This document shows, piece by piece, positions 1 to 12,610 of a stretch of 12,610 nucleotides of DNA. Within the stretch, counting starts at the first letter, position 1; the number at the start of each line of letters is the position of its first letter. The notes below the pieces were generated by a model. The model was not told the origin of the DNA. It saw nothing but the letters and a program-made list of their open reading frames with translations, and made no database searches. The DNA lies in IMG/VR virus record IMGVR_UViG_3300029060_000171, positions 1 through 12,610 of that record. The stretch is one strand, 5' to 3'. This DNA comes from a virus (lineage: Duplodnaviria; Heunggongvirae; Uroviricota; Caudoviricetes). The position numbers and the translations under genes are program-made.

Positions 1-327
1 CTTCAGAGAACCCGTAATTATTCCCGGTAGTTTTCCTCTGTAGGTTATCAACACATCCTGCGCCTCTAAAATTACGGGGCGCTTTTCCGGCGACTGCTCA
101 TCCCCTTCACATAACCCGGCAGCAACATCCAGGAAGACCTGTCTGATGCTCCTTCTGGCTGCTGCCTCATAAAACTCCAGCGCGGCACCTTCAACACGGT
201 CCAGCGAGATGTCCAGGTCAAAAATTTCACCGTCAAAGCGTTTTTTGTCCCGTAACGCTAAAGTTACCGTAACTTTATTCTCAAAATTGCGGATCCCTTT
301 CACAATCAGTTCATAGTTTTGAGTCAT
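1..327 (-). CDS. uncharacterized phage lysis-cassette protein, C-terminus truncated by window edge (109 codons visible; N-term MTQNYELIVKGIRNFENK)
   Basis: ATG at 327..325 on minus strand with GGGGAGAG Shine-Dalgarno about 7 nt upstream. Frame stays open to position 1. Starts 5 bp after the holin stop. N-terminus is not hydrophobic, so this is not a SAR endolysin. It occupies the holin-to-endolysin slot where DUF1327/YdfR-type genes sit in Qin-type cassettes; that family assignment is from memory and unverified. Confidence 0.55.
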   Translation of the reverse strand, partial: MTQNYELIVKGIRNFENKVTVTLALRDKKRFDGEIFDLDISLDRVEGAALEFYEAAARRSIRQVFLDVAAGLCEGDEQSPEKRPVILEAQDVLITYRGKLPGIITGSLK

Positions 328-331
328 TGAA

Positions 332-547
332 TTACTCTCCCCGTGCAGCCTTACGACGGTCCTCTCTGATTTTGAAATACAGGTTAGTCAGATATGTCAG
401 CAGCCCAAACAGCAGACTCCCCAGCACGCCTATTGCCGCCCACTGAGACGGGGAAACCCTGTCCAGCAACTGCAGGAACCAGTAGCCCGTTCCCACCGCT
501 GACGTGGTGTATGACACACCTGTTGTGATTTTTTCCATCTGGTACAT
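332..547 (-). CDS. S: class II holin, phage 21 S21-type pinholin (71 aa; 68-aa form from internal Met-4)
   Basis: Translation [71 protein letters not shown] is near-identical over most of its length to the phage 21 pinholin as I recall it ([22 protein letters not shown]...[22 protein letters not shown]). Two in-frame Met codons three codons apart (M1, M4) match the antiholin/holin dual-start design. GGGAG Shine-Dalgarno upstream of M1. Confidence 0.85.
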
Positions 548-622
548 ACCCCGTCTCCCGCAATCCGGAAGCTCACAACAACAAGTGGGGCATCAGCTCA
601 CACCGACACCCCCTGCGCATGG

Positions 623-868
623 TTACATCATCATTTCGCTGTCAGGTGTGGGTTCACCGCCATCTGAAGCACTCCCGTCACCCGCGATACCTTCCGGCTC
701 CAGAACCGCTGGTACGCCCAGCAGCTCATCCAGAATGGCATCCACTTCTGCATCAAGACGCGCCTCAAGGTTCTGGCGGAGTTTCTGTTTCAGTGCGCTC
801 AGGACTTCTTCAGAGCGCAGGACTTCCTTCACTGCCTCAGCAGTGACCAGGGATGTGATTTCTGACAT
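623..868 (-). CDS. small acidic helical protein of unknown function (81 aa, MSEITSLVTAEAVKEVLRSEEVLSALKQ...)
   Basis: The six-frame track gives 623..1042, but the first ATG with a plausible context is at 868..866; the longer form has no start signal. Highly acidic C-terminal tail. Sits between the esterase and the holin. Start and reality both uncertain. Confidence 0.4.
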   Translation of the reverse strand: MSEITSLVTAEAVKEVLRSEEVLSALKQKLRQNLEARLDAEVDAILDELLGVPAVLEPEGIAGDGSASDGGEPTPDSEMMM

Positions 869-905
869 GGGATTTTCTCGTTGAAAGGTGTTGTCAAGAA
901 AGTGA

Positions 906-1088
906 CTACGGAATGAGCGGATCTTCGGGTTTGCTTCCGGCTGACTGACTGGCGCTGATTCTCTCAGCGGCCCTTTTATCAATCTGCCTGCGCCAGAAAT
1001 CGCGCACTGCCCTGTACCCACCCGAAAGAAGATACATAACACAGACTGCCGTACAGAAGTACAGCATCACCTGATGAATAAATGTCAT
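906..1088 (-). CDS. small putative membrane protein (60 aa, single N-terminal hydrophobic helix then basic tail)
   Basis: ATG at 1088..1086. N-terminal stretch IHQVMLYFCTAVCVMYLL is transmembrane-like. No strong Shine-Dalgarno, so low confidence. Confidence 0.3.
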   Translation of the reverse strand: MTFIHQVMLYFCTAVCVMYLLSGGYRAVRDFWRRQIDKRAAERISASQSAGSKPEDPLIP

Positions 1089-1185
1089 AATTTCTTACCG
1101 TTATGGTTGACAATGAGAACTGTTTTCATTTAAAAAACCGATATACGAAAGCATCTTTTCTTTACATTCTCCATTGGGATTACCT

Positions 1186-1223
1186 CCGCCAGCTTCCATT
1201 CCTGCCGCTGGCGGCCTTTTTTT
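1186..1223 (+). terminator. strong plus-strand intrinsic terminator: 8-bp GC stem CCGCCAGC/GCTGGCGG (1186..1193 / 1207..1214) followed by CC and T7
   Basis: Perfect inverted repeat followed by a T7 run at 1217..1223 on the plus strand. It directly abuts the stop codon (1225..1227) of the minus-strand esterase gene. On the minus strand the hairpin has no U-tract, so it is effective only against plus-strand (antisense) transcription. Confidence 0.5.
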
Positions 1224-1224
1224 A

Positions 1225-3186
1225 TCATGCCGCGGCATCCGCGTTGTTCACTTCCACCTTCACACTGTCAATCAGCAGCGTATATGTCGCCGCCTTTGAT
1301 ATGCCTGTCAGTTGCAGTTTGTCCGCCGCCCCTGATGCCGGAGATTTCACCAGTGTGAACGGCGTCCCCCGTTTCTCATCCAGTACCGGCGTCACCTGAA
1401 TGCTGTTGTTTCCGGCAAACTCAAAAGCCAGTGTGTGCCATCCGTTATCAAAGACCCCGAACGTATCCAGCTTCGCATTCGGCTTCTTGTGGTGCATCGC
1501 GTTCAGGTTCGTCGCATCCGTCTGCAGGAAGAAGGACATCAGCATGTCGTTGCCTTCCTCTGCCAGCGTCACTCCCTCCGGCAGGGACGACAACTGCCAG
1601 TAAATGCCCAGGGCAAACTGATTCGGCACCAGTGAACCCGGCAACTTAAACCGTACGCTCACACGTCCTCCTTTCTTCAGCAACTCTGCCCCCTGCCCGG
1701 CTGCATCATGCTCCAGAAACCAGATGTGGTTTTCCGGTTTATTCAGTTGCAGGGCCTTACCTCCCGTAGCCCCCGCATCACTGACCACCGCTTCAGCAAT
1801 GTTTTTGTTAACATTGTCTCCGCTCGCCGGTTTGTGATAATAGCGCCAGCCCTGTGATGCCAGGTCTTCGCCGGACGCCAGCAGACTCATCAGGGTTCGG
1901 TTACTGACCGGACCTTCCGGCTCTCTCTCCGTACCTTCACCGGAAGGTCCGGTGGGCTTCACCGTATCAGGCTGTTTTCCGGTAATGAATTCAGCGGTTC
2001 TCCCGGCATGCACAAGAATCGCCGTTGCCAGACGGTCGGAAATAATCCCACGACGTGCCCATGATCCAAAATGCGTTTTACGGTCAGCCGTCGTCCAGGT
2101 TTTGGCGTCCGTTCGACCACCGGCTCCGTAATACCCAATATCCGCAACATCCGGATCTTCTGACGGCTCGTTGGTACCCACATTTCGCCCGTTTTCATCC
2201 GTCATAAACGGCACAAAGAAGATTTTTTTTGCGGATTTCGTCTTATATGCACCATACACCGCATCGTATTGCGAAGAATAAGTCTGCTTCCAGTAGTAGG
2301 TCGTGTCGCCACAAATCCAGGGAACTGATGACGGAGAGCCCCCGAGACACTGACCTCCGAATTCCGACAGGTCAGAACGATATTTTTCCACCATGGAATC
2401 AAACAGCCCCGGCTGAGTGGCGTATGCACCCTGTTTCAAATCAAACTCGCCCTGCATCCAGACCACTGCAAGCAGAATATTTTTAGGGTTGGCCTTCAGT
2501 GCGGCCTGAGTACGGGTAAGCAGGTCCTTGTACAGTGGCTTATCTACACCCCAGCGTGCCGAGGTCTCGCTTGCGCCGGTGGATTCGCTGAAGGTACCTT
2601 CATCGCCCGCCAAAAATGCAGAACCACCACGGCAGCACGGAACCAGAAGAATACCGGCATTCGCCGGAATAAACGGCAACAATTTCTTCGCGATATGTAA
2701 TCCCTGCCCCACGCATCCATACTGAGCTGCGCTGGCTTTCGGGTGTGAAAACTTACTCAAATCCTGAACATCATGCAGGCAGTGGTCCGCAGGAATAATG
2801 TCATTGTAGTTACAGGACGCACCACCCGGCGTGACAGTGCTGCGACGCGCCAGCTGTTTAATACGCGGGTCCGGACGGTCATATGTCTCCGGCAGCGGAA
2901 GCCCTTCACCATACGCCATACCGTTTGACTGCCCGGCCAGGGCAACAACAAAGTAATACTCCGGGTTGCTGGTAGTGCTGATAACTGCGCCTTCTCCATC
3001 CGACGACTTCACCACCACAGGTGTGGTGACATCACCTTCCGCCGTAATGGCCTGCATCAGGGTATAAGGCGTGATGGCCACCGGACTGCCAAATGGCTGC
3101 CACCCCTCCTTCAGTTTTTGTGTCAGTCGTTTCGCAAGGTCTGACGGCGATGCCGCCCTGACCACGTCATAGTGTTTAAATGCCAT
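1225..3186 (-). CDS. nanS-p: prophage NanS-p-type sialate O-acetylesterase (9-O-acetyl-N-acetylneuraminate esterase): N-terminal DUF1737-like region, central SGNH/sialate-esterase-like domain, C-terminal lectin-like region; 653 aa
   Basis: ATG at 3186 with GGGAGGA Shine-Dalgarno 4 nt upstream. Size and layout match the 640-660-aa esterases found downstream of the tRNA/stx position in EHEC lambdoid prophages. Family call is by recall of that architecture, not by alignment. Confidence 0.75.
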   Translation of the reverse strand: MAFKHYDVVRAASPSDLAKRLTQKLKEGWQPFGSPVAITPYTLMQAITAEGDVTTPVVVKSSDGEGAVISTTSNPEYYFVVALAGQSNGMAYGEGLPLPETYDRPDPRIKQLARRSTVTPGGASCNYNDIIPADHCLHDVQDLSKFSHPKASAAQYGCVGQGLHIAKKLLPFIPANAGILLVPCCRGGSAFLAGDEGTFSESTGASETSARWGVDKPLYKDLLTRTQAALKANPKNILLAVVWMQGEFDLKQGAYATQPGLFDSMVEKYRSDLSEFGGQCLGGSPSSVPWICGDTTYYWKQTYSSQYDAVYGAYKTKSAKKIFFVPFMTDENGRNVGTNEPSEDPDVADIGYYGAGGRTDAKTWTTADRKTHFGSWARRGIISDRLATAILVHAGRTAEFITGKQPDTVKPTGPSGEGTEREPEGPVSNRTLMSLLASGEDLASQGWRYYHKPASGDNVNKNIAEAVVSDAGATGGKALQLNKPENHIWFLEHDAAGQGAELLKKGGRVSVRFKLPGSLVPNQFALGIYWQLSSLPEGVTLAEEGNDMLMSFFLQTDATNLNAMHHKKPNAKLDTFGVFDNGWHTLAFEFAGNNSIQVTPVLDEKRGTPFTLVKSPASGAADKLQLTGISKAATYTLLIDSVKVEVNNADAAA

Positions 3187-3368
3187 GAATCCTCCCGGCC
3201 GGGATAATATTGTGAGTAAAATAAGGAGCGGGCTGAAGTCCGGAAGTTACAGGACAATGGCAGAAGAGAGACGACAGCCCGCAATTCGAAAAAGACCGCG
3301 CAGTTGCGCAGCCTTATGAATTCTGGTTAAAATCCATTCGATTATAAAAATGTATATCTCATGCTGTT

Positions 3369-3425
3369 GCCCGAACCCACTCGGGCTTTTTTTTGCCCAC
3401 AAGAAAGCCCCTCCGGAGAGGGGCT
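3369..3425. terminator. pair of opposed hairpins: plus-strand terminator GCCCGA-ACCCAC-TCGGGC + T8 (3369..3394), and an 8-bp perfect hairpin AGCCCCTC-CGGA-GAGGGGCT (3406..3425) that on the minus strand is followed by UUCUUGU
   Basis: Both inverted repeats were read directly. The first is a textbook plus-strand terminator. The second is a possible weaker minus-strand terminator. Located in the tRNA-to-esterase intergenic region. Confidence 0.45.
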
Positions 3426-3639
3426 AAAGCCGCGTATCTGTATCATCATGCACATGATGCCGGGTGCCTCCCGGTGAGTTCAGTATCAGCACCTGAACCC
3501 GCACAGAAAGGATAAGGGGCGGTGACAAAACACCAGTTGCTGATTGCCCCTCCGCACAGGGGGATTCACCATGCCAGTTTCTTTTAACAAACTCCCCGCA
3601 AAACAGACAACTGTCAACCGTCTGAATTGTGAGACATTT

Positions 3640-3667
3640 AAAAAAAAGCCCGCAAAAGCGAGCCGGG
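3640..3667 (-). terminator. intrinsic terminator immediately downstream of the tRNA trio (minus strand: stem GCUCGC/GCGGGC, loop UUUU, then U8)
   Basis: The plus strand reads A8-GCCCGC-AAAA-GCGAGC; on the minus strand that is a 6-bp stem (one G-U pair) plus an 8-U tract, 12 nt after the 3' end of the last tRNA. Confidence 0.55.
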
Positions 3668-3678
3668 AAAAATAAGTC

Positions 3679-3755
3679 TGGCGCGTTGTACTGGATTCGA
3701 ACCAGTGACCGATTGCTTAGAAGGCAATTGCTCTGTCCGGCTGAGCTAATAACGC
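3679..3755 (-). tRNA. tRNA-Arg (anticodon UCU), CCA encoded
   Basis: Reverse complement folds as a cloverleaf: acceptor GCGTTAT/ACAACGC (one mismatch), D-arm GCTC..GAGC, anticodon stem ATTGC/GCAAT with loop CTTCTAA, T-arm ACTGG-TTCGAAT-CCAGT, then G-CCA. Matches the argO/argN-type rare-codon tRNAs carried next to Q in Stx-like phages. Confidence 0.8.
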
Positions 3756-3768
3756 AGGGTACAGATAA

Positions 3769-3845
3769 TGGACCGCCTTCGGGGACTCGAACCCCGCGCA
3801 ACCAGCTTCGAAGGCTGGCGCTCTTTCCTGATGAGCTAATGGCGG
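3769..3845 (-). tRNA. tRNA-Arg (anticodon UCG), CCA encoded
   Basis: Cloverleaf with anticodon stem CCAGC/GCTGG and loop CTTCGAA, T-arm CGGGG-TTCGAGT-CCCCG, acceptor CCGCCAT/AAGGCGG (one mismatch; unusual C1). The fold was read by hand, so the anticodon call is less certain than for the flanking tRNAs. Confidence 0.65.
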
Positions 3846-3852
3846 TATGTGA

Positions 3853-3928
3853 TGGTGGCCCTTGCTGGATTTGAACCAGCGACCTGGCGATTATGAGTCG
3901 CTCGCTCTCACCACTGAGCTAAAGGGCC
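3853..3928 (-). tRNA. tRNA with CAU anticodon, most likely tRNA-Ile2 (lysidine type, ileX/ileZ-like) rather than tRNA-Met
   Basis: Sequence GGCCCTTTAGCTCAGTGGTGAGAGCGAGCGACTCATAATCGCCAGGTCGCTGGTTCAAATCCAGCAAGGGCCACCA differs at only a handful of positions from E. coli tRNA-Ile2 (ileX) as I recall it. Anticodon loop CTCATAA. Confidence 0.8.
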
Positions 3929-3956
3929 GAGCCAAAAAATAATAATCAGATGAAAA

Positions 3957-4670
3957 TCAATAATCAAGCCCTTGCCTGGATACATATCTGTCTGGCGGGA
4001 AGCCATAATAGCGGTGAAATACAGAAATAAAGTAGGACCTGCTTGAATAACCGCATTTTTCTGCTATAGCCTGTCCATATCCATGCCGGGAACATAACAT
4101 ATTTACAGCAACACGCATCCGCTCTTCCAGCAACAAGCGACTGAACATGCCCCCTTCATTTTTCAGTTTTGTCTTTAACAAACTCTCACTCATATGCAAC
4201 TGTAGAGCAATCGCACCAAGCGTCCAGCTTGCTGATATATCTGTCTGAATTATCGCCCTGACTTTGGCACTTATGCTGGATAAACATCCACTTAAAAACA
4301 ATGACATCCGTTCATCTGTTTCAAACAGAGACAGGCAGGCCATCATAAGAAACATATCCGTGGCCTCTCCGGAAAATCCCTGGCTGGTAATTAAAGCCGC
4401 AGCCAACGCAGGATTGTTGGGTTCCAGCAACAGGTAAAGCGGAATGTCAGTCAGACGAGTCCTCGTCAGCTTATGCTGACTTTCCAGATATTGACTTACG
4501 ACGGATTCGCTTATATCGACAATTTTAACTTTGCCATAATGCATAAGGAAAAGCTCCCTGATGCATTTGGTGGCCAGAACAACTGAGCCTGGCTTAAGTG
4601 ACAACGTATCCTTTTCAAGAAAAATATTAATTGGGGAGCAAACCATGATAACTGAACAGACAACAGCCAT
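3957..4670 (-). CDS. AraC/XylS-family transcriptional regulator (237 aa), prophage cargo
   Basis: C-terminal 100 aa carries the two-HTH AraC signature (WTLGAIALQLHMSESLLKTKLK...YGQAIAEKCGYSSRSYFISVFHRYYGFPP). AT-rich codon usage. A perfect TATAAT (minus strand, at 4706..4711) lies about 35 nt upstream of the ATG. Could belong to the prophage-encoded AraC-like regulators reported in EHEC (Psr/PatE type), but I cannot confirm identity. Confidence 0.8.
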   Translation of the reverse strand: MAVVCSVIMVCSPINIFLEKDTLSLKPGSVVLATKCIRELFLMHYGKVKIVDISESVVSQYLESQHKLTRTRLTDIPLYLLLEPNNPALAAALITSQGFSGEATDMFLMMACLSLFETDERMSLFLSGCLSSISAKVRAIIQTDISASWTLGAIALQLHMSESLLKTKLKNEGGMFSRLLLEERMRVAVNMLCSRHGYGQAIAEKCGYSSRSYFISVFHRYYGFPPDRYVSRQGLDY

Positions 4671-4790
4671 TATAATTTTACTTTCATTAGCAATTGGTTA
4701 GCTCAATTATAGCCCCAAAAGGTAAATTATCATCAACACATAAGCAAAGGACTGACAGGTGTCGCCCCCCCACCAGCCGCCCATTCACCA

Positions 4791-4818
4791 CAAATAAAAA
4801 GCCTTCAGGACTGAAGGC
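4791..4818 (-). terminator. intrinsic terminator overlapping the stop codon of the 65-aa ORF (stem GCCTTCA/TGAAGGC followed on the minus strand by UUUUUAUUUG)
   Basis: Perfect 7-8-bp inverted repeat at 4801..4818, with an A-run on the plus strand at 4791..4800 (a U-run on the minus strand). Confidence 0.5.
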
Positions 4819-5002
4819 GTCTGTAACAACCGCACTGATAGTCTGCCAGACCCGCCATAACAAGCTGGGTCAGTATTAACTGGCAGCGTTCGCGTGAAAG
4901 GTAAGTATTCTGCGCAATCTCCCCGACTGTCGCCGGTTCGGTAACGCTTAATTCATCAAACACAACTCTGGCGGTTTCTGTCATATCCTGCTGTTTCAGC
5001 AT
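4805..5002 (-). CDS. small HTH/winged-helix-like protein of unknown function (65 aa)
   Basis: ATG at 5002 with GGAAAGGG about 9 nt upstream. Segment VGEIAQNTYLSRERCQLILTQLVMAGL looks like an HTH recognition helix. Ends in its own terminator. Confidence 0.45.
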   Translation of the reverse strand: MLKQQDMTETARVVFDELSVTEPATVGEIAQNTYLSRERCQLILTQLVMAGLADYQCGCYRRLQS

Positions 5003-5122
5003 GTCTTTTTACCCTTTCCGGTTAACGTGACATACCAATAACTCTTGTCTAAAAAGCCAGCAAGATAAAAAGCCAGTATTCACGACCACCAGCGTGTTTA
5101 CTGTACTGCACCAAGTTTACAG

Positions 5123-5150
5123 GTACAAAAAACCCGCTCAGTGGCGGGTT
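5123..5150 (-). terminator. intrinsic terminator about 130 nt downstream of the 205-aa gene (minus strand: AACCCGC-CACUGA-GCGGGUU then UUUUGU)
   Basis: 7-bp stem read directly at 5131..5150; U-rich tract on the minus strand. Confidence 0.55.
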
Positions 5151-5280
5151 TAAGTTGTGTGGCGAAGTAACCACTCTTAACACACTAATAGCATTTTTGT
5201 TATAACACAAGTAACTCATTCAGTATTTTTAGAATCTTGACTTTCTTAAGCACGGCGAACTCTGAATACCAAACATAAAA

Positions 5281-5898
5281 TCAATTATCTTCCAGGCCGG
5301 ATGCTATCAACGAAAGCCTCTCAAAAAACGCTGTAGCAGCCTTGTCCAAAGTTGAATAAGTACTGTATTCTCCGTGTTCGGGACCAACCACTACCCATGG
5401 TCGTCTTTTTGGGATTCGGGACTTCTCAGAAATCACTGTTCCAGATATACCAATATCAATTGTTACACCTGTTATTATTTTCTCTTCATCTCTTTCCCTG
5501 AACTCAATTGCCATAAATGCCGTTTTTTTTCGTTTCCCGTTTTTAAAAAAATCAAATAAAGCAAAGCGATGCTCATTAAAATCAACACCCCATCGTCCTT
5601 CAGGATAAAGGGCATGAAAGTTGTCATTTACGCTCTGCATCGTCTCATAAGCTTTAACTTCTAAATCTCCATAGTGCATAGATACCGCGCAGGAGTCACT
5701 GGGTAACTGTATTTTCCCAAGATTGAAAACCTTTACTGCTCCAGAACTATGGCATCTTGCCCGCAATTTATCCCCATTTATACTAATCGGAGAAATATTC
5801 CTTAATGTTCCGGGCTGGCTCCCTCCTAAGTAAACGACTGTTAAAGATTGCTTATTTTCAATTGCATCAACTAATACATGCTCTACATTTTTATCCAT
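5281..5898 (-). CDS. hypothetical protein, 205 aa, no recognisable family; AT-rich orphan cargo gene immediately downstream of Q
   Basis: The track ORF 5281..5925 starts at an ATG with no Shine-Dalgarno (it is preceded by CCUCC). The in-frame ATG at 5898..5896 has a GGGAGG Shine-Dalgarno 5 nt upstream, so MDKNVEHVLVDAIENK... is the likely start. Flanked by a 5' hairpin and a 3' terminator. Confidence 0.7.
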   Translation of the reverse strand: MDKNVEHVLVDAIENKQSLTVVYLGGSQPGTLRNISPISINGDKLRARCHSSGAVKVFNLGKIQLPSDSCAVSMHYGDLEVKAYETMQSVNDNFHALYPEGRWGVDFNEHRFALFDFFKNGKRKKTAFMAIEFRERDEEKIITGVTIDIGISGTVISEKSRIPKRRPWVVVGPEHGEYSTYSTLDKAATAFFERLSLIASGLEDN

Positions 5899-5900
5899 AA

Positions 5901-5935
5901 TAACCTCCCAATGAACAGGTATCATCAGGAGGTTA
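5901..5935 (-). promoter_or_regulatory. Shine-Dalgarno-sequestering hairpin in the 5' leader of the 205-aa gene (mRNA: UAACCUCC - 19-nt loop - GGAGGUUA - UU - AUG)
   Basis: Perfect 8-bp complementarity between 5928..5935 and 5901..5908. The downstream arm is the Shine-Dalgarno itself, and the start codon begins 2 nt after the stem. Confidence 0.5.
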
Positions 5936-5973
5936 TAATAAAATATGATTATTTACTTTGATTGAATTTATTA

Positions 5974-6345
5974 CTATATGTAACAATCAATTTCTAAAGA
6001 TACCCCCAACATTGCCAGACAACCGTCAATAAACCCTTCAGCTTTCTGCAGTCTGATAACAACCTGATTAAGTGATATCCCCAGTTTTACCCCCAACACC
6101 CGTAATGTAACCCCATACACATAATACATTTCCAGTAATTCGTATTGATACGGTTCCTTTTTCTTAAGAACTGTCATCGCAGAGCTAATGATCAGGCCAT
6201 CGTCATCGCTACATTGCGGGCGGGATTTTACTTTCGAAGGAATTAATCCCTTAAAACCTGCAGCAACAGATGACCATTCCACATCCTCGTGATTATTTGC
6301 CACCCATGCCCCCCAACGTTCAAGAACCATTTGAATATCACGCAT
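5974..6345 (-). CDS. Q: late-gene antiterminator Q, QuuD/phage-82 type (about 123 aa)
   Basis: N-terminus MRDIQMVLERWGAWVANNHEDVEWSSVAAGFKGL matches my recollection of DLP12 QuuD / Q82-family proteins; the C-terminus is sigma-region-4-like. ATG at 6345 with GGAGAAA Shine-Dalgarno; the track ORF extends to a TTG at 6360. Confidence 0.75.
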   Translation of the reverse strand: MRDIQMVLERWGAWVANNHEDVEWSSVAAGFKGLIPSKVKSRPQCSDDDGLIISSAMTVLKKKEPYQYELLEMYYVYGVTLRVLGVKLGISLNQVVIRLQKAEGFIDGCLAMLGVSLEIDCYI

Positions 6346-6362
6346 CAACTTTCTCCACAAAA

Positions 6363-7358
6363 TCAGGCCAGCACGCCTATTGCCAGCGCACGATCGATAA
6401 AACGAAATATCAGCTCCAGCTGGGAGCCATACTTCTCTTCAAATGCCACGGTATCCGCATGCAGCTCGTCGTGATGCTTTCTGCACAAAGGCAGCACGAA
6501 GAGGTCATGCGCTTTTGTACCCATTCCCCCCTGACCGTGGCCTATCAGGTGGTGGGGATCATCAGCAGGCTTTCCACAACATGCACACGGCTGCGTCTTA
6601 ACCCAGCGCGTGTACTTTTCATTAACCCAGCGGCGACGTTTGGGGCGTAACATAAAAGACTCCGGCGACTCCGGATCCACTTTCAGCGCCAGCACCTTTT
6701 TCGCTTTATCCTGGATGATGCTGGTGGCAGGAACCGAAGGCACAAGGTCACTTTCCCGGGTGACAGACGGCACAACAGGCTTCGGTAATCTCAGTGCCTT
6801 ACGGGCTGCACTTTCCGGTAAGGCATCCGCCAGGTCATTACGAATCAGCCACCAGCACAGTTCCGGCATTGTCACAACGTGACTGTCATCAAAACCGAGA
6901 TCCCGACGCACAACAGACAACACCCAGCGGGCACAGTTATCCGTTGCCATTGATTCCAGCCGTTCCGTGAACTGATCGCGCAGCTGGTTATCGCAGTGCC
7001 AGCACAGACGGATTGCACCCGGAGCGTGTCGCATTGTGGTCATGTTCTCGCTGTGCCATCCGGAATGAGGCCACTGGCAGCCTTTTTCACGAAGTAACCA
7101 GCTTTCAAGACATTCCACGCCACCAGCACGACGGATCACTGCCTCATGGCGGAACACGGCCCGAACGGCAGGATCATCCGCCAGCGGTTGTGATGCCGCC
7201 GGAACGGCACCACTGGCGAAAGATGAATAACGCTCCGGCTCAGGCTCCAGCAGGACACGCCCCTGCATAAACAGGGGCATCAGCTCTGAACCTGGCCTGA
7301 ACAATACGATCCCCATACGCGGGGCAATTTCAGGGGTCAGTAGTGCTCTCACAGTCAC
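6363..7358 (-). CDS. DUF968-like (YdfU-like) nin-region protein with C-terminal Cys/His-rich HNH-like motif (331 aa)
   Basis: C-terminus CACCGKPADDPHHLIGHGQGGMGTKAHDLFVLPLCRKHHDELH. Position just upstream of Q matches ydfU in Qin-type prophages. Start is a GTG directly after the KilA-N stop; exact start uncertain. Confidence 0.65.
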   Translation of the reverse strand: MTVRALLTPEIAPRMGIVLFRPGSELMPLFMQGRVLLEPEPERYSSFASGAVPAASQPLADDPAVRAVFRHEAVIRRAGGVECLESWLLREKGCQWPHSGWHSENMTTMRHAPGAIRLCWHCDNQLRDQFTERLESMATDNCARWVLSVVRRDLGFDDSHVVTMPELCWWLIRNDLADALPESAARKALRLPKPVVPSVTRESDLVPSVPATSIIQDKAKKVLALKVDPESPESFMLRPKRRRWVNEKYTRWVKTQPCACCGKPADDPHHLIGHGQGGMGTKAHDLFVLPLCRKHHDELHADTVAFEEKYGSQLELIFRFIDRALAIGVLA

Positions 7359-7359
7359 C

Positions 7360-8175
7360 TCAATGAACGGTATCGAGCAGCTTTAACAGCTCAGGAAATC
7401 GGGATTCGAAGAAATGCGGCTGCGTCTCGCGCGGATTTGCAGGACTGGTGATGTTCTTGCCGAACATGCAGCCTTTCGCGGTCAGCGACCAGAATTTTTT
7501 GATGTTGTTAATCGCGGTACGGCTGTATCGTTCGCGTTGTTCAACGATCCCCAGCTTCGCCATCTGGTGATATGCCTGATTAGCCGTCAGGCGGATACCA
7601 TACTGCTTCAGCAGTGCACTCAGCGACAGCGTAGGGCGGCTTGAACCATCTGGCGCATCAGCAGGTGCATCAATGGCATAGATCGGCATAAGTTCAGGAA
7701 GACCAGCTACCTTTGATAATTTCTGGTATGCACCAAGTTTCGAGGAGTTTGACAGATTTAGAGTCTTTGCTGCTGATTCAAGCAGAATGACCCCGGATTT
7801 AATTTTGTCGGATGTGGTTTCTTCTGGTGATGAATTATGAAGCGCATCAAAAGTACGTATCACTTTTAAGCTGAATGCCGGGCTGATCCACATTGCATAT
7901 GCATAGACCAGCTCTTTACAGACATACGTCCCACCATTGCGCCCCTGAATGGTGATGACAGGAATACTACGGGAATCTCCCGTAGTTTCTTCTTCCAATA
8001 ATTCCACAAGAGCCTTCGTTTCAGGACGACGCATAAACTCGTGAACTTCCAGCGAACGGGAGGAGCGATTCTCACCAGCGGCAAGAAGAGCAGCTTTCTG
8101 AAGGTCGTTAAGACAGTAGTTAGATTCGAAGTACTGGCGCACAGAAACGCCATCAATTACAAGCAACTGATTCAT
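7360..8175 (-). CDS. KilA-N domain protein (antirepressor/Roi-like), about 271 aa
   Basis: N-terminal 100 aa end in the KilA-N signature GGTYVCKELVYAYAMWISPAFSLKVI. ATG at 8175 with GGAGAAA Shine-Dalgarno (the track start at 8187 is a GTG). A 150-bp upstream intergenic region contains a LexA box. Confidence 0.7.
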   Translation of the reverse strand: MNQLLVIDGVSVRQYFESNYCLNDLQKAALLAAGENRSSRSLEVHEFMRRPETKALVELLEEETTGDSRSIPVITIQGRNGGTYVCKELVYAYAMWISPAFSLKVIRTFDALHNSSPEETTSDKIKSGVILLESAAKTLNLSNSSKLGAYQKLSKVAGLPELMPIYAIDAPADAPDGSSRPTLSLSALLKQYGIRLTANQAYHQMAKLGIVEQRERYSRTAINNIKKFWSLTAKGCMFGKNITSPANPRETQPHFFESRFPELLKLLDTVH

Positions 8176-8272
8176 TGGTTTCTCCACAAATTTTTATCCA
8201 CGAGCGGGACTGCACTCCCTTTTCGTTGATGCAGGATGAACTTACTGCGATTTTTAATAGTTATCAAGGATA

Positions 8273-8292
8273 CACTGTTCATAAATACAGTA
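8273..8292. promoter_or_regulatory. SOS box (LexA operator) CACTGTTCATAAATACAGTA in the RusA/KilA-N intergenic region
   Basis: Perfect CTGT-N8-ACAG core with AT-rich spacer and flanking A/TA, matching the E. coli LexA consensus TACTGTATATATATACAGTA. Followed on the minus strand by TTGATA - 17 nt - TAAGTT, a possible promoter. About 100 nt upstream of the KilA-N start. Confidence 0.5.
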
Positions 8293-8337
8293 TCTTTAAC
8301 GAGGTAATACCCAAATTTAGGGTGTTGCTCAATTCCG

Positions 8338-8733
8338 TTACCGAGTTGCTAATTTGCAACTCGCTTTTTCGTACTTACTGATAGTGATCTCGACCTTCCC
8401 CTCCGGGATAACCGGTCCCCACTCCACCAGCATTCTTTTCACCTGACTGTCGTCTTCCCACACACCCGCGTGGGTCAGGGCGTCAAACAGCGCCTTGTTA
8501 TAGTTGTCCAGATCGCGGATCCGGTTATCCGGAGGAAACAACACGATCTCCACTGAAGCAGGTGCCGACGTTGGTTTCGGCAGACGACGTAACTGCTCAA
8601 CTATTGCTGCACACGCCGCGCTCTGGAATTTTCGCCCCGCCGCGCTTATCAGGCTCTTACCAGCAAACGCCCCTTTGTTGGGGTGTCGCCAGTACGTGTT
8701 CACGCTGGGCGGAAAAGGCAGTATTAGCTTCAT
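8338..8733 (-). CDS. rusA: RusA-family Holliday junction resolvase (131 aa)
   Basis: N-terminus LPFPPSVNTYWRH and central RDLDNYNKALFDALTHAGVWEDDSQV match the RusA signature (PWPPS.N.YYRH ... RDLDN..KA.FDALTKAGFW.DD.QV). ATGA overlap with the upstream gene. Confidence 0.85.
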   Translation of the reverse strand: MKLILPFPPSVNTYWRHPNKGAFAGKSLISAAGRKFQSAACAAIVEQLRRLPKPTSAPASVEIVLFPPDNRIRDLDNYNKALFDALTHAGVWEDDSQVKRMLVEWGPVIPEGKVEITISKYEKASCKLATR

Positions 8734-9056
8734 ACTTTCAGGCCCCTCTCATGTAACCAGTGGGTTGCACGCAGCCTTGCGTTTTCCTCACCGGCAAGCA
8801 GTGCGCGGATAATCCCGACCGCCTCGCTGTCGTCGTCCTTCATCGCAGTATGAAGCGTTATCCCCCGGGCCACGCCACGCTTTATCGTGATGACGCCTTT
8901 TTTCTCCAGTGCGCGAAGATGCTCCACCGCTGCATTCACCGAACGGTATCCCAGCATGGTTGCCACCTCCTGATTGGTTGGCGGGAAGCCACGTTCTTTC
9001 TGATAAGAAATCAGCATATCCAGCACCTGCTGCTGGCATTGAGTTAACGTCGTCAT
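8730..9056 (-). CDS. LexA N-terminal DNA-binding-domain-only protein (108 aa; no S24 peptidase domain)
   Basis: LTQCQQQVLDMLISYQKERGFPPTNQEVATMLGYRSVNAAVEHLRALEKKGVITIKRGVARGITL parallels LexA residues about 1-70 ([55 protein letters not shown]). The protein ends 40 aa later with no Ala-Gly cleavage / Ser-Lys catalytic region. Confidence 0.7.
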   Translation of the reverse strand: MTTLTQCQQQVLDMLISYQKERGFPPTNQEVATMLGYRSVNAAVEHLRALEKKGVITIKRGVARGITLHTAMKDDDSEAVGIIRALLAGEENARLRATHWLHERGLKV

Positions 9057-9706
9057 GCCGCCATCTCCCTGACCAGTTTTTCCGCCTGCTGGCGAACCTG
9101 CGCCAGAAACGCCTCACCACATGCCTCAAGTTCATCGCGCCCTATGTAGCTGATTGCCGGTCCCTTCCAGGTCTTGTCGAAAACAGCAATAGCACCAGCG
9201 AAGAAAGCACCTGTTGGCACCTGCTTTTCGTCTTTCGGGATAAACCAGGCAGGCAGTTCAAAACCAATACGCCCGCGAATAAAAGCAATATGATCTGCAT
9301 CTTCCGGCCACCACACTTCGCTGGTGGCAGCTTTGATCAGGAAAACATAGCGCCCGCCTTTATCACGCATGGCACTGGCATGCTTCATGATGTAACGCAT
9401 GCCTGTGATGTATTGCCCCTCATGCTGACTGGCGCGGCTGTACGGGGGATTACCAAAGGCAGCACCTTTAAGCTCCGCAAGACGTTCAGACCAGTCATGC
9501 GCCAGCGCGTTGTCTTCCGCAGTGTAATAAGCGGCACATTTGGCGTTATCACCATCAGTGAACAGATCCAGAACAAACGGGCCAAACAGGGTGTTAATTC
9601 CCCAGAAAATGTTGTCCGGCGTGCGCCACTGATCGCCCACTTCCTTCAGTTCATGGGCTGGTTTGTTCCGCAGCTCCACCAGCGCCTGGCAATATTTATT
9701 ACTCAT
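9053..9706 (-). CDS. phage-type DNA N6-adenine methyltransferase (Dam family), 217 aa
   Basis: Motif GNPPYS (the NPPY/DPPY catalytic motif) in a protein of the size and position typical of lambdoid nin-region Dam methylases. ATG at 9706 with GGGGG Shine-Dalgarno (the track start at 9739 is a GTG). Confidence 0.85.
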   Translation of the reverse strand: MSNKYCQALVELRNKPAHELKEVGDQWRTPDNIFWGINTLFGPFVLDLFTDGDNAKCAAYYTAEDNALAHDWSERLAELKGAAFGNPPYSRASQHEGQYITGMRYIMKHASAMRDKGGRYVFLIKAATSEVWWPEDADHIAFIRGRIGFELPAWFIPKDEKQVPTGAFFAGAIAVFDKTWKGPAISYIGRDELEACGEAFLAQVRQQAEKLVREMAA

Positions 9707-10200
9707 TAAGCCCCCACGTAATTCCCTGACAGATACCACTCTTCACCCGATGCAGCGCGCTTGCTGCTTTTCCGTAAGCACCGCTCACGATGCGCCAGAA
9801 AATTGTTTCGTTCTGGCTGGGAGTGGCTTTCACGGAATGCCTCCATCCACACCGTTGCAGCTCGACGGAATAAGCCCCTGGACTCCAGTTCTTCCGCCTG
9901 GCGAGTCAGGCACAAAATCACCTGCGGGTCGTTAGTGCCGACACAGAAATTGCGCACAGGTCTGGTTTCACGAACTGGTTGTGGTTCCGGCTCCTGTGCT
10001 CTCTCAGTCAGGCGCGGGAAATGTCTGCGTGTATCTCCTTCACAACGGTGAGCCACACGCCCACTCTGACGTAACTTGCTTGCTGACTGCAGAACGCGCT
10101 GCCGTGAGTAACCTGCAAAAGCATCCGCAATGTCTCCGGAAGTACACCCCGGATGGGCTTCAATGAATTTCTGAACTTCATTCAAAAGACTCATGATCAC
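9706..10200 (-). CDS. PerC-family-like protein (YfdN-like), 164 aa: N-terminal HTH-like region plus C-terminal PerC-like motif
   Basis: C-terminal AEELESRGLFRRAATVWMEAF...ERNNFLAHRERC resembles the PerC/Pch motif (LE..GLWRRAA..W ... RR..C) as I recall it. Same size and Dam-adjacent position as yfdN in CPS-53. Assignment unverified. Confidence 0.55.
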   Translation of the reverse strand: MIMSLLNEVQKFIEAHPGCTSGDIADAFAGYSRQRVLQSASKLRQSGRVAHRCEGDTRRHFPRLTERAQEPEPQPVRETRPVRNFCVGTNDPQVILCLTRQAEELESRGLFRRAATVWMEAFRESHSQPERNNFLAHRERCLRKSSKRAASGEEWYLSGNYVGA

Positions 10201-11015
10201 CCCCTGAATCCTGCCGGGATCTGGCTGTAGTCCACGTTGTCGTAACTGGCTTTGAAGTACGGGTCCTCGCGTCTGGCTGCAGATACCGCAGGAACTTCCC
10301 AGGATTCTTCGAAATGACGATCCGGACCAAAGAACGTGACAGCCTGTTTCACAAATTGTGTGCCGCTGTTACCCATCGCAGATACCCAGCCCGCGTAGCG
10401 TTTCACACCTTCCAGCATGGTTTCGGGTTTTACCCCCTCATTCAAACGGGCTTTCCAGGCTTTGAAGGCTGCAGATTTTGAATTGCCACCAGCACGTTTT
10501 GGATAGGCCAGCCATGCCTGCTCAAACTCCGGAGAGTATTCCGGTCGGTTTGAACGAACTCGCACAGACTCATCAGCAGATGCACCAACAGCTATTGGTT
10601 CATTGACTGGTTCTTTGACTGGTTCAAAAGAGTGACTGGTTCTGGGTGAATCTCCTGCACTACCCCCTGGTGCAACTCCTGCACTACCTGGTGAATTTGC
10701 TGCACCAGATAGTGAATTATTTGCACTACCCCCTAGTGAATCTCCTGCACCATCAAGATGAAGGAGATAGATATTACTTGAGTTACCTTTTTCACCTTTC
10801 CGGGTGACTTTTTTTACCAGCCCGGACTCACAAAGGGCCGCAATATGATTCATCACAGAACGTTTGCTAATCTCGCACTGGTCAGCAATATGCTGGTAGC
10901 TGGGCCAGCACTCACCCTGATCGCTGGCATTATCAGCCAGCTTAATCAGAACCAGTTTTCGCAATGGATTTCCCACTCGAATTTTCATCGCTTTAACCAT
11001 CAACTCCATACTCAT
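10197..11015 (-). CDS. replication initiator / replisome organizer (lambda O-like: N-terminal HTH domain, low-complexity linker encoded by iterons, conserved C-terminal domain), 272 aa
   Basis: N-terminal LRKLVLIKLADNASDQGECWPSYQHIADQCEISKRSVMNHIAALCESGLV is replisome-organizer HTH-like. C-terminal PEFEQAWLAYPKRAGGNSKSAAFKAWKARL is like the conserved phage replication-protein C-terminus. The central Gly/Ser/Ala/Pro linker is encoded by direct repeats. GGAGGTG Shine-Dalgarno. Confidence 0.75.
   Translation of the reverse strand: MSMELMVKAMKIRVGNPLRKLVLIKLADNASDQGECWPSYQHIADQCEISKRSVMNHIAALCESGLVKKVTRKGEKGNSSNIYLLHLDGAGDSLGGSANNSLSGAANSPGSAGVAPGGSAGDSPRTSHSFEPVKEPVNEPIAVGASADESVRVRSNRPEYSPEFEQAWLAYPKRAGGNSKSAAFKAWKARLNEGVKPETMLEGVKRYAGWVSAMGNSGTQFVKQAVTFFGPDRHFEESWEVPAVSAARREDPYFKASYDNVDYSQIPAGFRG
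10603..10757. repeat. putative origin of replication: five 21-25-bp iterons with internal dyad GTGAA/GTGCA-N5-TGCAC (10646..10757) plus three TGACTGGTTC repeats (10603..10642), all inside the O-like gene
   Basis: Direct repeats read from the sequence: GTGAATCTCCTGCACTACCCCCTG / GTGCAACTCCTGCACTACCTG / GTGAATTTGCTGCACCAGATA / GTGAATTATTTGCACTACCCCCTA / GTGAATCTCCTGCACCATCAA. AT-rich stretches flank the array. Analogous to ori-lambda iterons within O. Confidence 0.6.
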
Positions 11016-11236
11016 GCAGCACCTCCGAGATGCTTCATGTTTTTTCCGGAGCGAAAGGCTATAAGCGGCATACTGACGCGGTAATTACGGCCCAGCGGTT
11101 CACAAATCACCTTCTGACATTCACGGTCAACCAGGCTAACACGTAGAACATGCCCTGCAGGCGTGGTGTACCACTGACCCGGACGAGGACAACGGAAAGT
11201 ATGATTGGTAAACCGTTTGAAAATATTCCGGATCAT
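11012..11236 (-). CDS. small Cys-containing protein of unknown function (74 aa)
   Basis: ATG overlaps the Rha stop (ATGA) and is preceded by AGGGGG Shine-Dalgarno. Its stop overlaps the O-like start. A diverged homolog is encoded upstream at 11779..12105 (shared MIRNIFK.FTN and PG..YT..A). Confidence 0.45.
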   Translation of the reverse strand: MIRNIFKRFTNHTFRCPRPGQWYTTPAGHVLRVSLVDRECQKVICEPLGRNYRVSMPLIAFRSGKNMKHLGGAA

Positions 11237-12105
11237 TTACGCCCCCTTACCTCTGAAGGGTTCAGCGACAAATTTATGAGACTGGCCAGTAGCGCCGCGT
11301 CGTTGATGCGGTCATACAGACTTACAGCCAGCGGGGATTCGGCTTTTGCCAACATGGGATAAAGCTGCTGCAGCCAGACCTTGTGGATTACCGACAGGTG
11401 GGAGTAAAGCACGCTGGCGTTATCTGCGGCATCGCTCAGCGTGGATGGCTTTGAAAGCAGTTTTTCCATCTGGTTAAAGGCATTGATGTATGCCTCTTTG
11501 AACCGGGCAGCACGTTTACCCGTGAAACCCATAGCAAGAAACGCAAAGCCGTCGCGGGTTATTTGATAGCAAGGTAGTTTGCGGCCTGTGCAATCGGTGT
11601 AATCACTCACCGAAAAATTGCGGGCAGTGAATGATGCAGAGCATTCAAGCGTGCGGATCTTTTTCAGTACATCGTCATGACGTTTGGAGAAGAAGTTGGC
11701 AACAGCCAGGGATGAAGTAACAGCCTGACCATCAACGATGGCAATTTCAGGTTGAGTGAGGGTTGGGATCGTAGCCATGATGGCAGCCTCTTTGGTGATT
11801 TTTAATAACTCACCACCAAGGCTTTCCACGACCTTATTGGTGGTGAGACGTACAGGGGTGGAAATACCGGTCACCAAAGAACCCGGCCCAACCGAAGTTG
11901 GCCCTGCACGCCCCACCATAATTTGGGCGTAACGATGCTCATGACACGAAAAAACCGCATGAGCGCGGTTGTGCTCTATATTGAATTTCGGGTTTCCACG
12001 CCCGGCACCCGCTTTATAAGGTGCCTGAACAGTGTAACGTCCCGGAATTGCAGAATCAATATGCTGGTGGCGATTGGTAAACAGTTTGAAAATATTCCGG
12101 ATCAT
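11233..12105 (-). CDS. rha: Rha-family phage regulatory protein. The Rha domain is 11233..11778 (181 aa, own AAAGAGG Shine-Dalgarno and ATG at 11778); the ORF continues in frame upstream to an ATG at 12105, adding 109 aa homologous to the 74-aa small ORF.
   Basis: TSSLAVANFFSKRHDDVLKKIRTLE ... GRKLPCYQITRDGFAFLAMGFTGKRAARFKEAYINAFNQME is the Phage_pRha signature. Whether the product is a 290-aa fusion or two proteins cannot be decided from sequence. Confidence 0.7.
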   Translation of the reverse strand: MIRNIFKLFTNRHQHIDSAIPGRYTVQAPYKAGAGRGNPKFNIEHNRAHAVFSCHEHRYAQIMVGRAGPTSVGPGSLVTGISTPVRLTTNKVVESLGGELLKITKEAAIMATIPTLTQPEIAIVDGQAVTSSLAVANFFSKRHDDVLKKIRTLECSASFTARNFSVSDYTDCTGRKLPCYQITRDGFAFLAMGFTGKRAARFKEAYINAFNQMEKLLSKPSTLSDAADNASVLYSHLSVIHKVWLQQLYPMLAKAESPLAVSLYDRINDAALLASLINLSLNPSEVRGRK

Positions 12106-12610
12106 TTACGCCCCCTTACCTCTGAAGGATTCAGCGACAAATTTATGAGGCAGGCCAGCGCCGAAGCATCATTAATATAGTCATACAAGCTAACAGCCAG
12201 CGGAGATTCGGCTTTTGCCAACATAGGATAAAGCTGCTGCAGCCAGACCTGATGAATTGATGAAATGTAGGAATAGAGAACGCTGGCGTTATGTGCAACG
12301 TCGCTCGGTACAGCGGGCTTTGAAAGCTGTTTCTCCATCTGGTTAAAGGCATTGATGTATGCCTCTTTGAACCGGGCAGCACGTTTCCCCGTGAAGCCCA
12401 TGGCAAGAAACGCAAAACCGTCGCGGGTGATTTGGTAACAAGGGAGTTTGCGGCCTGATGCGTCGGTGTATTCACTTAACACAAAATTGTGTTCAGTAAA
12501 TTCAGCGGAACATTCGAGGTTTCTAATTCTATCTAAAACCCGCTCATGCCGTTTAGTAAAGTAATTAGCTACTGCAAGAGATGTGGTGACAACGCGACCA
12601 TTGATAATCG
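12073..12610 (-). repeat. second copy of a tandem paralogous duplication of about 868 bp (first copy about 11205..11778): Rha gene 3' portion plus the start of the following small ORF
   Basis: The two copies align throughout with frequent substitutions. They include identical runs such as CTGGTTAAAGGCATTGATGTATGCCTCTTTGAACCGGGCAGCACGTTT and the junction GTTTGAAAATATTCCGGATCATTTACGCCCCCTTACCTCTGAAGG. Confidence 0.7.
12102..12610 (-). CDS. rha: Rha-family phage regulatory protein, paralog 2, N-terminus outside window
   Basis: Frame is open from the window edge; translation ...TTSLAVANYFTKRHERVLDRIRNLECSAEFTEHNFVLSEYTDASGRKLPCYQITRDGFAFLAMGFTGKRAARFKEAYINAFNQMEK... is a diverged paralog of the first Rha protein. 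The track start at 12482 is a GTG inside the real ORF. Confidence 0.7.
   Translation of the reverse strand, partial: IINGRVVTTSLAVANYFTKRHERVLDRIRNLECSAEFTEHNFVLSEYTDASGRKLPCYQITRDGFAFLAMGFTGKRAARFKEAYINAFNQMEKQLSKPAVPSDVAHNASVLYSYISSIHQVWLQQLYPMLAKAESPLAVSLYDYINDASALACLINLSLNPSEVRGRK

Follow-up and report, generated by a model that had tools for sequence, protein, structure and literature searches.

A LexA-type box between rusA and kilA-N

We analysed a 12,610-nucleotide (nt) stretch of DNA from a virus of the class Caudoviricetes (positions 1 to 12,610 of the record IMGVR_UViG_3300029060_000171; hereafter, the window), which contains a candidate operator for the SOS repressor LexA between the genes rusA and kilA-N. 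The window is the early-right arm of a lambdoid prophage, and all of its genes lie on the minus strand. Using Pfam to assign domains, we found a gene order of O-like replication protein, PerC, Dam, LexA-like protein, RusA, KilA-N, DUF968, and Q, with the LexA-type box located between the genes for RusA and KilA-N. This is a nin-type region. The coordinates of the features discussed below are listed in Table 1.

The box lies within a 150-nt gap (8188-8337). An original prediction, made from the letters of the window, had described this gap as truly intergenic and had placed the box about 100 nt upstream of the KilA-N gene, and both statements held. The stop codon of rusA delimits one side, and 98 nt separate the end of the box from the kilA-N ATG. 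The program that listed open reading frames (ORFs) started kilA-N at a GTG at 8187; the ATG at 8175, taken here as the start, is preceded by GGAG, and both the GGAG and the ATG are kept in 12 homologues. The part of the KilA-N protein that is C-terminal to the domain has no known domain. A 36-codon ORF that starts within the box and shares an ATGA overlap with kilA-N lacks a ribosome-binding site and was judged spurious from its sequence.

Table 1. Position and character of features from the truncated lexA gene to Q, in window coordinates
Feature	Position	Strand	Description
Truncated LexA, 108 amino acids	8730..9056	-	LexA DNA-binding domain only, no S24 protease domain; two genes upstream of kilA-N
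rusA	8338..8733	-	RusA by Pfam; stop codon 8338-8340
Folded element	8297..8369	+	Outer stem 8297-8340; hairpin 8303-8329 with three G-U pairs; terminator-like hairpin 8342-8363; T-run 8365-8369
Weaker alternative promoter P1	8267..8296	-	-35 AAGATA 8296-8291; 18-nt spacer filled by box; -10 TATCCT 8272-8267
LexA (SOS) box, predicted	8273..8292		Plus strand CACTGTTCATAAATACAGTA; minus (coding) strand TACTGTATTTATGAACAGTG; perfect CTGT/ACAG arms
Candidate promoter P2	8239..8267	-	-35 TTGATA 8267-8262; 17-nt spacer; -10 TAAGTT 8244-8239
Leader hairpin	8196..8230	-	Core 8206-8219; inner stem GGGA/TCCC; loop GTGCAG; outer stem ACGA/TCGT
Shine-Dalgarno and kilA-N start	8173..8185	-	GGAG 8185-8182; ATG 8175-8173
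kilA-N gene, 271 amino acids	7360..8175	-	KilA-N domain at residues 10-114
Mosaic segment, about 430 nt	7933..8361	-	Replaces Stx2a_1447-type junction; gap and divergent first ~80 codons of kilA-N
DUF968/HNH-like gene	6363-7358	-	Directly downstream of kilA-N; Pfam
Antiterminator Q gene	5974-6360	-	Directly after DUF968; Pfam

The core of the box, CTGT ATTTATGA ACAG, has the A/T-rich spacer that was originally reported, with A/T at seven of eight positions, and is the single occurrence of CTGT-N8-ACAG in the window. The original prediction gave a chance expectation of about 0.2 for such cores, and our computed value of 0.20 agrees; yet 31 of 200 shuffled sequences contained at least one, which makes the bare core weak evidence. 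The 20-mer has four mismatches to TACTGTATATATATACAGTA, and a search found no site with three or fewer. Using a weight matrix trained on E. coli LexA operators, we obtained a score of 21.35 bits for the box, as compared to 11.9 to 27.2 bits for the training sites (median 20.1) and 14.7 bits for the runner-up site in the window. In 300 dinucleotide shuffles of the complete window, the score of the box was never reached (mean maximum 9.07, standard deviation 2.5); these shuffles correspond to approximately 3.8 Mb of null sequence, which indicates that the scanning of many windows fails to explain the box away. A value resembling the heterology index was 5.3-7.8 for the box, which is inside the training range of 0.8-10. 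These features suggest that the box is very probably a real LexA operator.

In the commoner arrangement of the rusA/kilA-N junction, which is found in Stx2a_1447/WGPS2, SfII, SfV, mEp460, and many phages encoding Shiga toxin (Stx) 2c, rusA and kilA-N are 19 nt apart and there is no box. In the window, 30 nt of internal kilA-N coding sequence survive as a relic in the last ~10 codons of rusA (8340-8369), which points to illegitimate recombination in the origin of the mosaic segment. This 3' end of rusA contains a perfect palindrome, CGAGTTGC-N6-GCAACTCG, which derives from kilA-N coding sequence (SELQICNS in Stx2a_1447-type genes) and is retained within the kilA-N genes of five loci of our collection (L002, L005, L006, L010, and L029; loci are referred to by such numbers throughout).

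Searches of phages (in distant mode), plasmids, E. coli genomes, and viral contigs returned copies of the gap that were all at least 87.5% identical. Among the 5426 complete E. coli genomes searched, 186 carry the gap, and these comprise O104:H4 C227-11, O111:H8 strains, O157:H7 FRIK944, and the neonatal meningitis E. coli (NMEC) strain S88, among others. It also occurs in the phages SfIV (Shigella serotype-converting), VIT_AJPSC, and PhiR49_1, and in about 100 viral contigs. The plasmid search found it on none. In the Stx2h-converting prophage of STEC299, kilA-N, DUF968, and Q are likewise preceded by this box and promoter. Variants of the gap feature up to nine substitutions and an 11-nt deletion, all outside the box, and the CTGT/ACAG core is constant in all 186 E. 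coli genomes and all examined phage copies, with G or A at position 20. Because only near-identical copies of the gap exist, direct phylogenetic footprinting is impossible. The 19-mer TACTGTATTTATGAACAGT was also found in five unrelated contexts in viral contigs, of which three are coding and two resemble other SOS boxes. In one viral contig (L146, about 95-140), it belongs to a pair of overlapping LexA-type boxes in tandem, and an ATG lies 10 nt downstream of the 19-mer; in another, unrelated one, it lies at about 9572-9590 (L110). These two sites probably mark independent SOS-controlled phage genes.

LexA-like sites, a candidate promoter and a hairpin in kilA-N leaders

We also investigated whether LexA-like sites occur upstream of other kilA-N homologues, using 80 loci from other species and 35 divergent viral loci. 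The strict CTGT-N8-ACAG core was found within 350 nt upstream of none of the 80 homologues, which at first suggested an isolated chance site, a view that was reversed by scanning with the weight matrix. Among 79 non-redundant homologues, 13 have a site that scores 12 bits or more within 200 nt upstream, whereas 0.19 were expected from shuffles and no more than one site was found in any of 100 shuffled sets. Controls of equal size gave 1 of 79 inside the gene and 1 of 75 further upstream. A criterion independent of the matrix, CTG-N10-CAG with A/T at no fewer than seven of the ten spacer positions, gave 5 of 79 as compared to 0.55 expected (reached by 0 of 200 shuffles; controls 0/79 and 1/75).

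Some of these sites overlap good candidate promoters. In Erwinia L027, a box covers the -10 of a gene-strand promoter (TTGCCA-17-TATATT), and in L258 (GTTACA-17-TATAGT) and L259 (GTTACA-17-TATATT) a box covers the -35, that of L259 scoring 21.6 bits. The layout of L241 is similar to that of L258 and L259, with the box overlapping a good gene-strand promoter. That upstream regions unrelated to the gap of the window carry a box over a promoter suggests that SOS control of the kilA-N family has been gained repeatedly. As far as the searchable literature goes, the recurrence of LexA-like boxes before the KilA-N family in many Enterobacterales is new. Near-consensus LexA boxes were also observed elsewhere around distant kilA-N homologues, at -1407 in Izhakiella L061 (TACTGTATATGCATACAGTA) and at +1823 in Marinomonas L079 (TGCTGTATATTTATACAGTA).

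We next considered the promoter. The originally proposed element TTGATA-17-TAAGTT, here P2, is present on the minus strand and predicts a transcription start near 8232, so that the box is centred at about -50.5 and lies upstream of the -35. Six homologous leaders were aligned (the window, L238, L237, L236, Kluyvera L005, and Raoultella L007). Their spacers diverge, but all six share the TG of the -35 and the bases T1, A2, and T6 of the -10, which supports P2 as a real promoter. At the position of P2, L005 and L007 encode TTGAAT/TTGAAG-17-TAATGT/TAATCT, and in L007 a CTG-N10-CAG is kept at the same 5-nt distance from the -35. The weaker P1, whose spacer is filled by the box in a recA-like layout, is not conserved in L007. 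On the opposite strand, the box occupies -30 to -11 of a weak promoter. The box stands beside a promoter-like element, as was originally proposed, and LexA-like boxes recur before kilA-N homologues far more often than expected by chance. Between kilA-N, DUF968, and Q we found no convincing minus-strand terminator, which makes read-through from P2 to DUF968 and Q plausible.

The kilA-N leader also features a hairpin with a KTGCAG loop (K, G or T), 20-45 nt upstream of the kilA-N start. When 98 distinct kilA-N upstream regions were examined, 38 had a hairpin with TGCAG in its loop and a stem of at least 4 bp; the stem variants include GGGC/GCCC, GGCGG/CCGCC, GTCGG/CCGAC, AGCGT/ACGCT, TCAT/ATGA, and GCCCGC/GCGGGC. 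Short-junction alleles, which have neither the gap nor the promoter, also have such a hairpin, formed by the end of rusA, and some leaders have two copies about 36 nt apart. Using an alignment anchored on TGCAG occurrences alone, and hence independent of pairing, we found that the preceding base is G or T in 38 of 40, that the five flanking pairs are 67.5% paired as compared to 42.3% in shuffles (0 of 500 reach this value), and that the covariation score is 0.596 as compared to 0.213 in shuffles, with every slid register scoring lower. The stems covary and the KTGCAG loop is conserved across genera. The folding energy is unremarkable (z = -0.7), and a search of Rfam 15 matched nothing in the gap (E <= 1) or in nine related loci. 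These patterns suggest that the hairpin is an undescribed cis-element of the kilA-N leader that probably acts on RNA.

Two other occurrences of the loop motif were set aside. A KTGCAG hairpin within DUF968 (6477-6490, minus strand; CTTT-GTGCAG-AAAG) is formed by 5 of 20 distinct sequences, and the motif corresponds to the Cys-Arg codons of a PLCRK motif, which suggests that this hairpin is probably a codon by-product; three stem variants were observed among relatives. The GTGCAG in a C4-like RNA is located in a paired stem and was therefore considered a coincidence.

Proposed host LexA control and alternative readings

Based on these findings, we favour a reading, to which we assign a probability of roughly 0.55, in which host LexA controls an internal promoter for kilA-N whose transcripts probably extend to DUF968 and Q. 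This reading is based on the quality of the box, the recurrence of such boxes upstream of homologues, and the conservation of key bases in P2. In an undamaged lysogen, host LexA would be bound to the box, where it would either occlude the A/T-rich zone just upstream of the P2 -35 or fill the spacer of P1. LexA could interfere with an A/T-rich upstream-element zone from -50, which would be atypical for this repressor. Upon DNA damage, cleavage of LexA would permit transcription of kilA-N that needs neither pR nor antitermination and that would probably continue into DUF968 and Q, given the lack of a convincing terminator after kilA-N. The leader hairpin would act on the transcript as a second level of control. 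According to this model, DNA damage would probably switch on kilA-N directly, and perhaps Q. LexA binding, repression from the position of the box, read-through to Q, and the role of the hairpin are predictions from the DNA sequence.

One part of the original prediction was not supported, namely the suggestion that an antirepressor-like kilA-N product might provide an SOS-controlled alternative route of induction. The protein contains only a KilA-N domain, with no ANT/KilAC, Tum-like, or other antirepressor signature. PHROGs labels it as a 'transcriptional regulator', and searches of PADLOC, NCBIfam, and PDB sequences with the protein returned nothing relevant. The immunity region lies outside the window, and the type of repressor was judged from the relatives S88 and SfIV. 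The prophage of E. coli S88, which is 97% identical over the window, encodes a CI-type repressor with a Peptidase_S24 self-cleavage domain (6e-19), and the SfIV repressor gp37 is annotated as UmuD-like. A self-cleaving repressor in this relative suggests that no antirepressor is needed for SOS induction there.

Several observations weigh against control of kilA-N by host LexA. The weight matrix was trained on operators that were not drawn from a database, and the bare CTG-N10-CAG is not enriched upstream of kilA-N homologues (9/79 as compared to 3.6 expected, with 5/79 and 7/75 in the controls). P2 and P1 match the promoter consensus at only 8 and 7 of 12 positions, respectively, and a consensus scan of 7900-8800 with a threshold of 9/12 found no promoter, so that the originally proposed promoter falls below the cut-off despite its invariant key bases. 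LexA usually represses from sites over the -35 and -10, and a box at -50.5 of P2 lies outside that zone. The gap is monomorphic, so conservation of the box inside it carries little weight. In addition, the box is absent in L005, L236, and L237, and L238 has lost one half-site; these are the closest divergent alleles, and together with the short-junction alleles they suggest that SOS control is facultative and that the box is dispensable. Finally, searches of the literature found neither experimental data on this site nor a link between LexA and KilA-N.

Three other explanations were considered. The box might have no regulatory effect, either as a relic of a mosaic segment acquired from a donor phage or as a chance match, with kilA-N transcribed only by read-through from pR. 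The atypical position of the box, the weak local promoters, and the close alleles in which the box is missing or degrading all fit this explanation, as do the commoner Stx2a-type allele, which works with a 19-nt junction and no box, and the signs of illegitimate recombination left by the kilA-N relic in rusA. A chance match of this quality, however, is expected less than once in several Mb, and the reappearance of boxes in independent lineages speaks for SOS control of the kilA-N family being under selection. The core has also stayed intact in the 186 E. coli genomes and all examined phage copies while the flanks vary, and we consider a box without effect unlikely. Alternatively, the box could chiefly be an operator of the truncated LexA that the phage encodes in its early operon. 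This protein would shut the promoter again once host LexA has been destroyed, or else activate it from just upstream of the -35. The latter role is that of gp6 of phage GIL01, a truncated LexA by which a promoter under LexA repression is activated (PMC6182141). The truncated protein gives a full-length match to the Pfam family LexA_DNA_bind (2.9e-19) and aligns residue by residue with E. coli LexA 2-70 (PDB 1lea, E = 6e-16; about 48% identical); on the TIGR00498 lexA model it reaches 70 bits, as compared to a cut-off of 111, and covers model positions 1-91 only. It keeps S39, N41, A42, and E45, which we take to be base-contacting residues of LexA, and has V in place of E44. Lacking the protease domain, it would be non-cleavable. 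The order lexA-like/rusA/kilA-N is common across genera, Edwardsiella L024 has an 18.9-bit box before kilA-N and a lexA-like gene immediately downstream of kilA-N, and a box centred near -50 fits an activator better than a repressor. Across the 115 loci, however, gene and box do not co-occur. The gene is found without the box in Stx2a_1447, L005, L008, L010, L236, and L237, and the box without such a gene in the flank in L012, L027, L241, and L258-L260. The specificity of the protein is predicted from alignment, and we regard a box that serves mainly the phage protein as improbable.

The third explanation concerns the plus strand. The box could control a weak promoter that directs a small RNA of ~70 nt (about 8298/8303 to 8369). 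This RNA would start right at the box, fold into two hairpins, end in an intrinsic terminator, and run antisense to the rusA 3' end as well as to mRNA that reads through into kilA-N. The candidate promoters over the box are GATACA (8269-8274) and TATCTT (8291-8296) with a 16-nt spacer, or TTATCA-19-TACAGT, and the resulting position of the box, -30 to -11, is canonical for LexA. Over 8293-8372, the plus strand has a folding energy of -27.3 kcal/mol (z = -5.19), which none of 200 shuffles reached, and after GC correction it ranks about 16th-19th of 5012 windows, behind four other loci that include the known C4 RNA and the region downstream of Q. A terminator-like hairpin followed by a T-run is present on the plus strand only, the three G-U pairs of the first hairpin favour the plus over the minus strand (-27.3 as compared to -20.7), and plus-only pairing is kept in two of three informative natural variants. 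However, the third variant favours minus-strand pairing, the promoters match at only 7-8 of 12 positions with poor spacing, and AZ187 alters the essential last T of TATCTT. Furthermore, the palindrome of the putative terminator is left over from kilA-N coding sequence, and the T-run is the complement of rusA codons. All four terminator-like matches in 7900-8800 lie on the plus strand, which suggests a composition bias. The element has no Rfam match and no homologue beyond the monomorphic allele, and the recurrent boxes of other lineages accompany gene-strand promoters. We therefore give an antisense RNA little chance of being what the box controls.

Control by host LexA could also be combined with a role for the phage protein. 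In this combined form, which we hold to be a long shot, the box would be an operator shared by cleavable host LexA and the non-cleavable phage LexA-domain protein, and together with the KTGCAG hairpin it would make up a damage-gated path, independent of N and pR, that leads to kilA-N, DUF968, and Q, with the phage protein later resetting or boosting the promoter. If so, cleavage of LexA alone could prime late-gene and Shiga-toxin expression in the Stx2h prophage of STEC299, and the circuit would represent a Gram-negative counterpart of the LexA/gp6 circuit of GIL01.

Neighbouring features and relation to known systems

Several features elsewhere in the window were noted. The right end, ahead of the O-like gene, contains Rha/Ash regulator genes with C4/isrK-type antisense RNAs. 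At 11836-12024 and 11233-12482 (minus strand), matches to C4 antisense RNA (83.6 bits) and to isrK (61.6 bits) are located inside or ahead of an Ash/Rha regulator gene, and a partial duplicate of the Rha C-terminal region lies upstream at 12102-12482. This is a c4/ant-type module resembling immI of P1 within a lambdoid early operon. Beyond Q are genes for a WYL protein (5281-5925) and an AraC-like protein (3957-4670), three tRNAs, and a nanS-type esterase (1225-3186). Between the AraC-like gene and the esterase, region 3339-3928 contains an AsxR/AgvB-type anti-sRNA (3339-3391, plus strand) and STnc100 (3395-3603, minus strand) in addition to the tRNAs. This region is the slot of the stx genes in Stx phages, which makes the window look like a stx-less relative. 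The start of DUF968 (7200-7330, minus strand) has a very stable RNA fold, -57.3 kcal/mol over 131 nt (z = -3.78), and is the top locus of the window for structure by GC-corrected folding energy.

If the box is functional, the window contains an SOS-responsive promoter within the early-right operon, upstream of the antiterminator Q, by which damage would act on kilA-N, and possibly on Q and late genes, in the absence of repressor cleavage or N-type antitermination. Such a promoter would bear on the triggering of prophage late genes and toxin release by antibiotics. The recurrence of LexA-like boxes before kilA-N homologues provides a first regulatory handle on kilA-N and DUF968, a very common phage gene pair of unknown function.

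SOS control of this kind is already known from other prophages, and its operator from the host. E. coli SOS promoters of the recA type have a CTGT-N8-ACAG operator, and the recA box fills the spacer between -35 and -10. The box described here shares this operator architecture and likewise lies in the spacer of the weak P1; unlike recA, the better-supported P2 has the box centred near -50, and both P1 and P2 are far from consensus. Tum of coliphage 186 and AntC of N15 are demonstrated antirepressors of non-cleavable repressors. Neither has sequence or domain similarity to the KilA-N protein. Both systems nevertheless include a phage gene outside the immunity region that is repressed by host LexA (cited in PMC3121763), as proposed here.

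The closest layout is that described by Lemire, Figueroa-Bossi and Bossi (2011, PMC3121763) for Gifsy-1, -2, and -3, where a LexA box with its own promoter lies after the replication genes and ahead of Q. These prophages provide a direct precedent for the original proposal that an SOS promoter in the middle of the pR operon frees KilA-N, DUF968, and Q from upstream antitermination; in the window, the proposal is qualified by the position of the box at -50.5 and by the reliance of read-through to Q on the lack of a terminator. In Gifsy, SOS-dependent expression is independent of the immunity region, and by analogy the same may apply here. The Gifsy box and promoter are located 1.3 kb downstream of the replication genes and are preceded by palindromes (PMC3121763). 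Two palindromes also precede the box of the window, although here there is no U-tract on the gene strand and the T-run is on the opposite strand. Furthermore, the Gifsy box is followed by a homologue of dinI and by small antirepressors (Gfo/Gft/Gfh), whereas the box here is followed by the 271-residue KilA-N protein, DUF968, and Q. The Gifsy repressors are not cleaved, in contrast to the closest relative of the window, whose repressor has an S24 self-cleavage domain, and only in the window does the box lie upstream of the -35.

Fornelos et al. 2018 (PMC6182141) described the P3 promoter of GIL01, which host LexA represses together with gp7 and which the truncated LexA homologue gp6 activates. 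This phage, a tectivirus of Bacillus, has tandem boxes and uses gp7 as a co-repressor, whereas in the phages considered here gene and box do not co-occur and binding by the truncated LexA is at most predicted. Like GIL01, however, the window encodes a protein consisting only of a LexA DNA-binding domain and has a LexA-type site at or next to the -35 of a promoter directed toward late functions.

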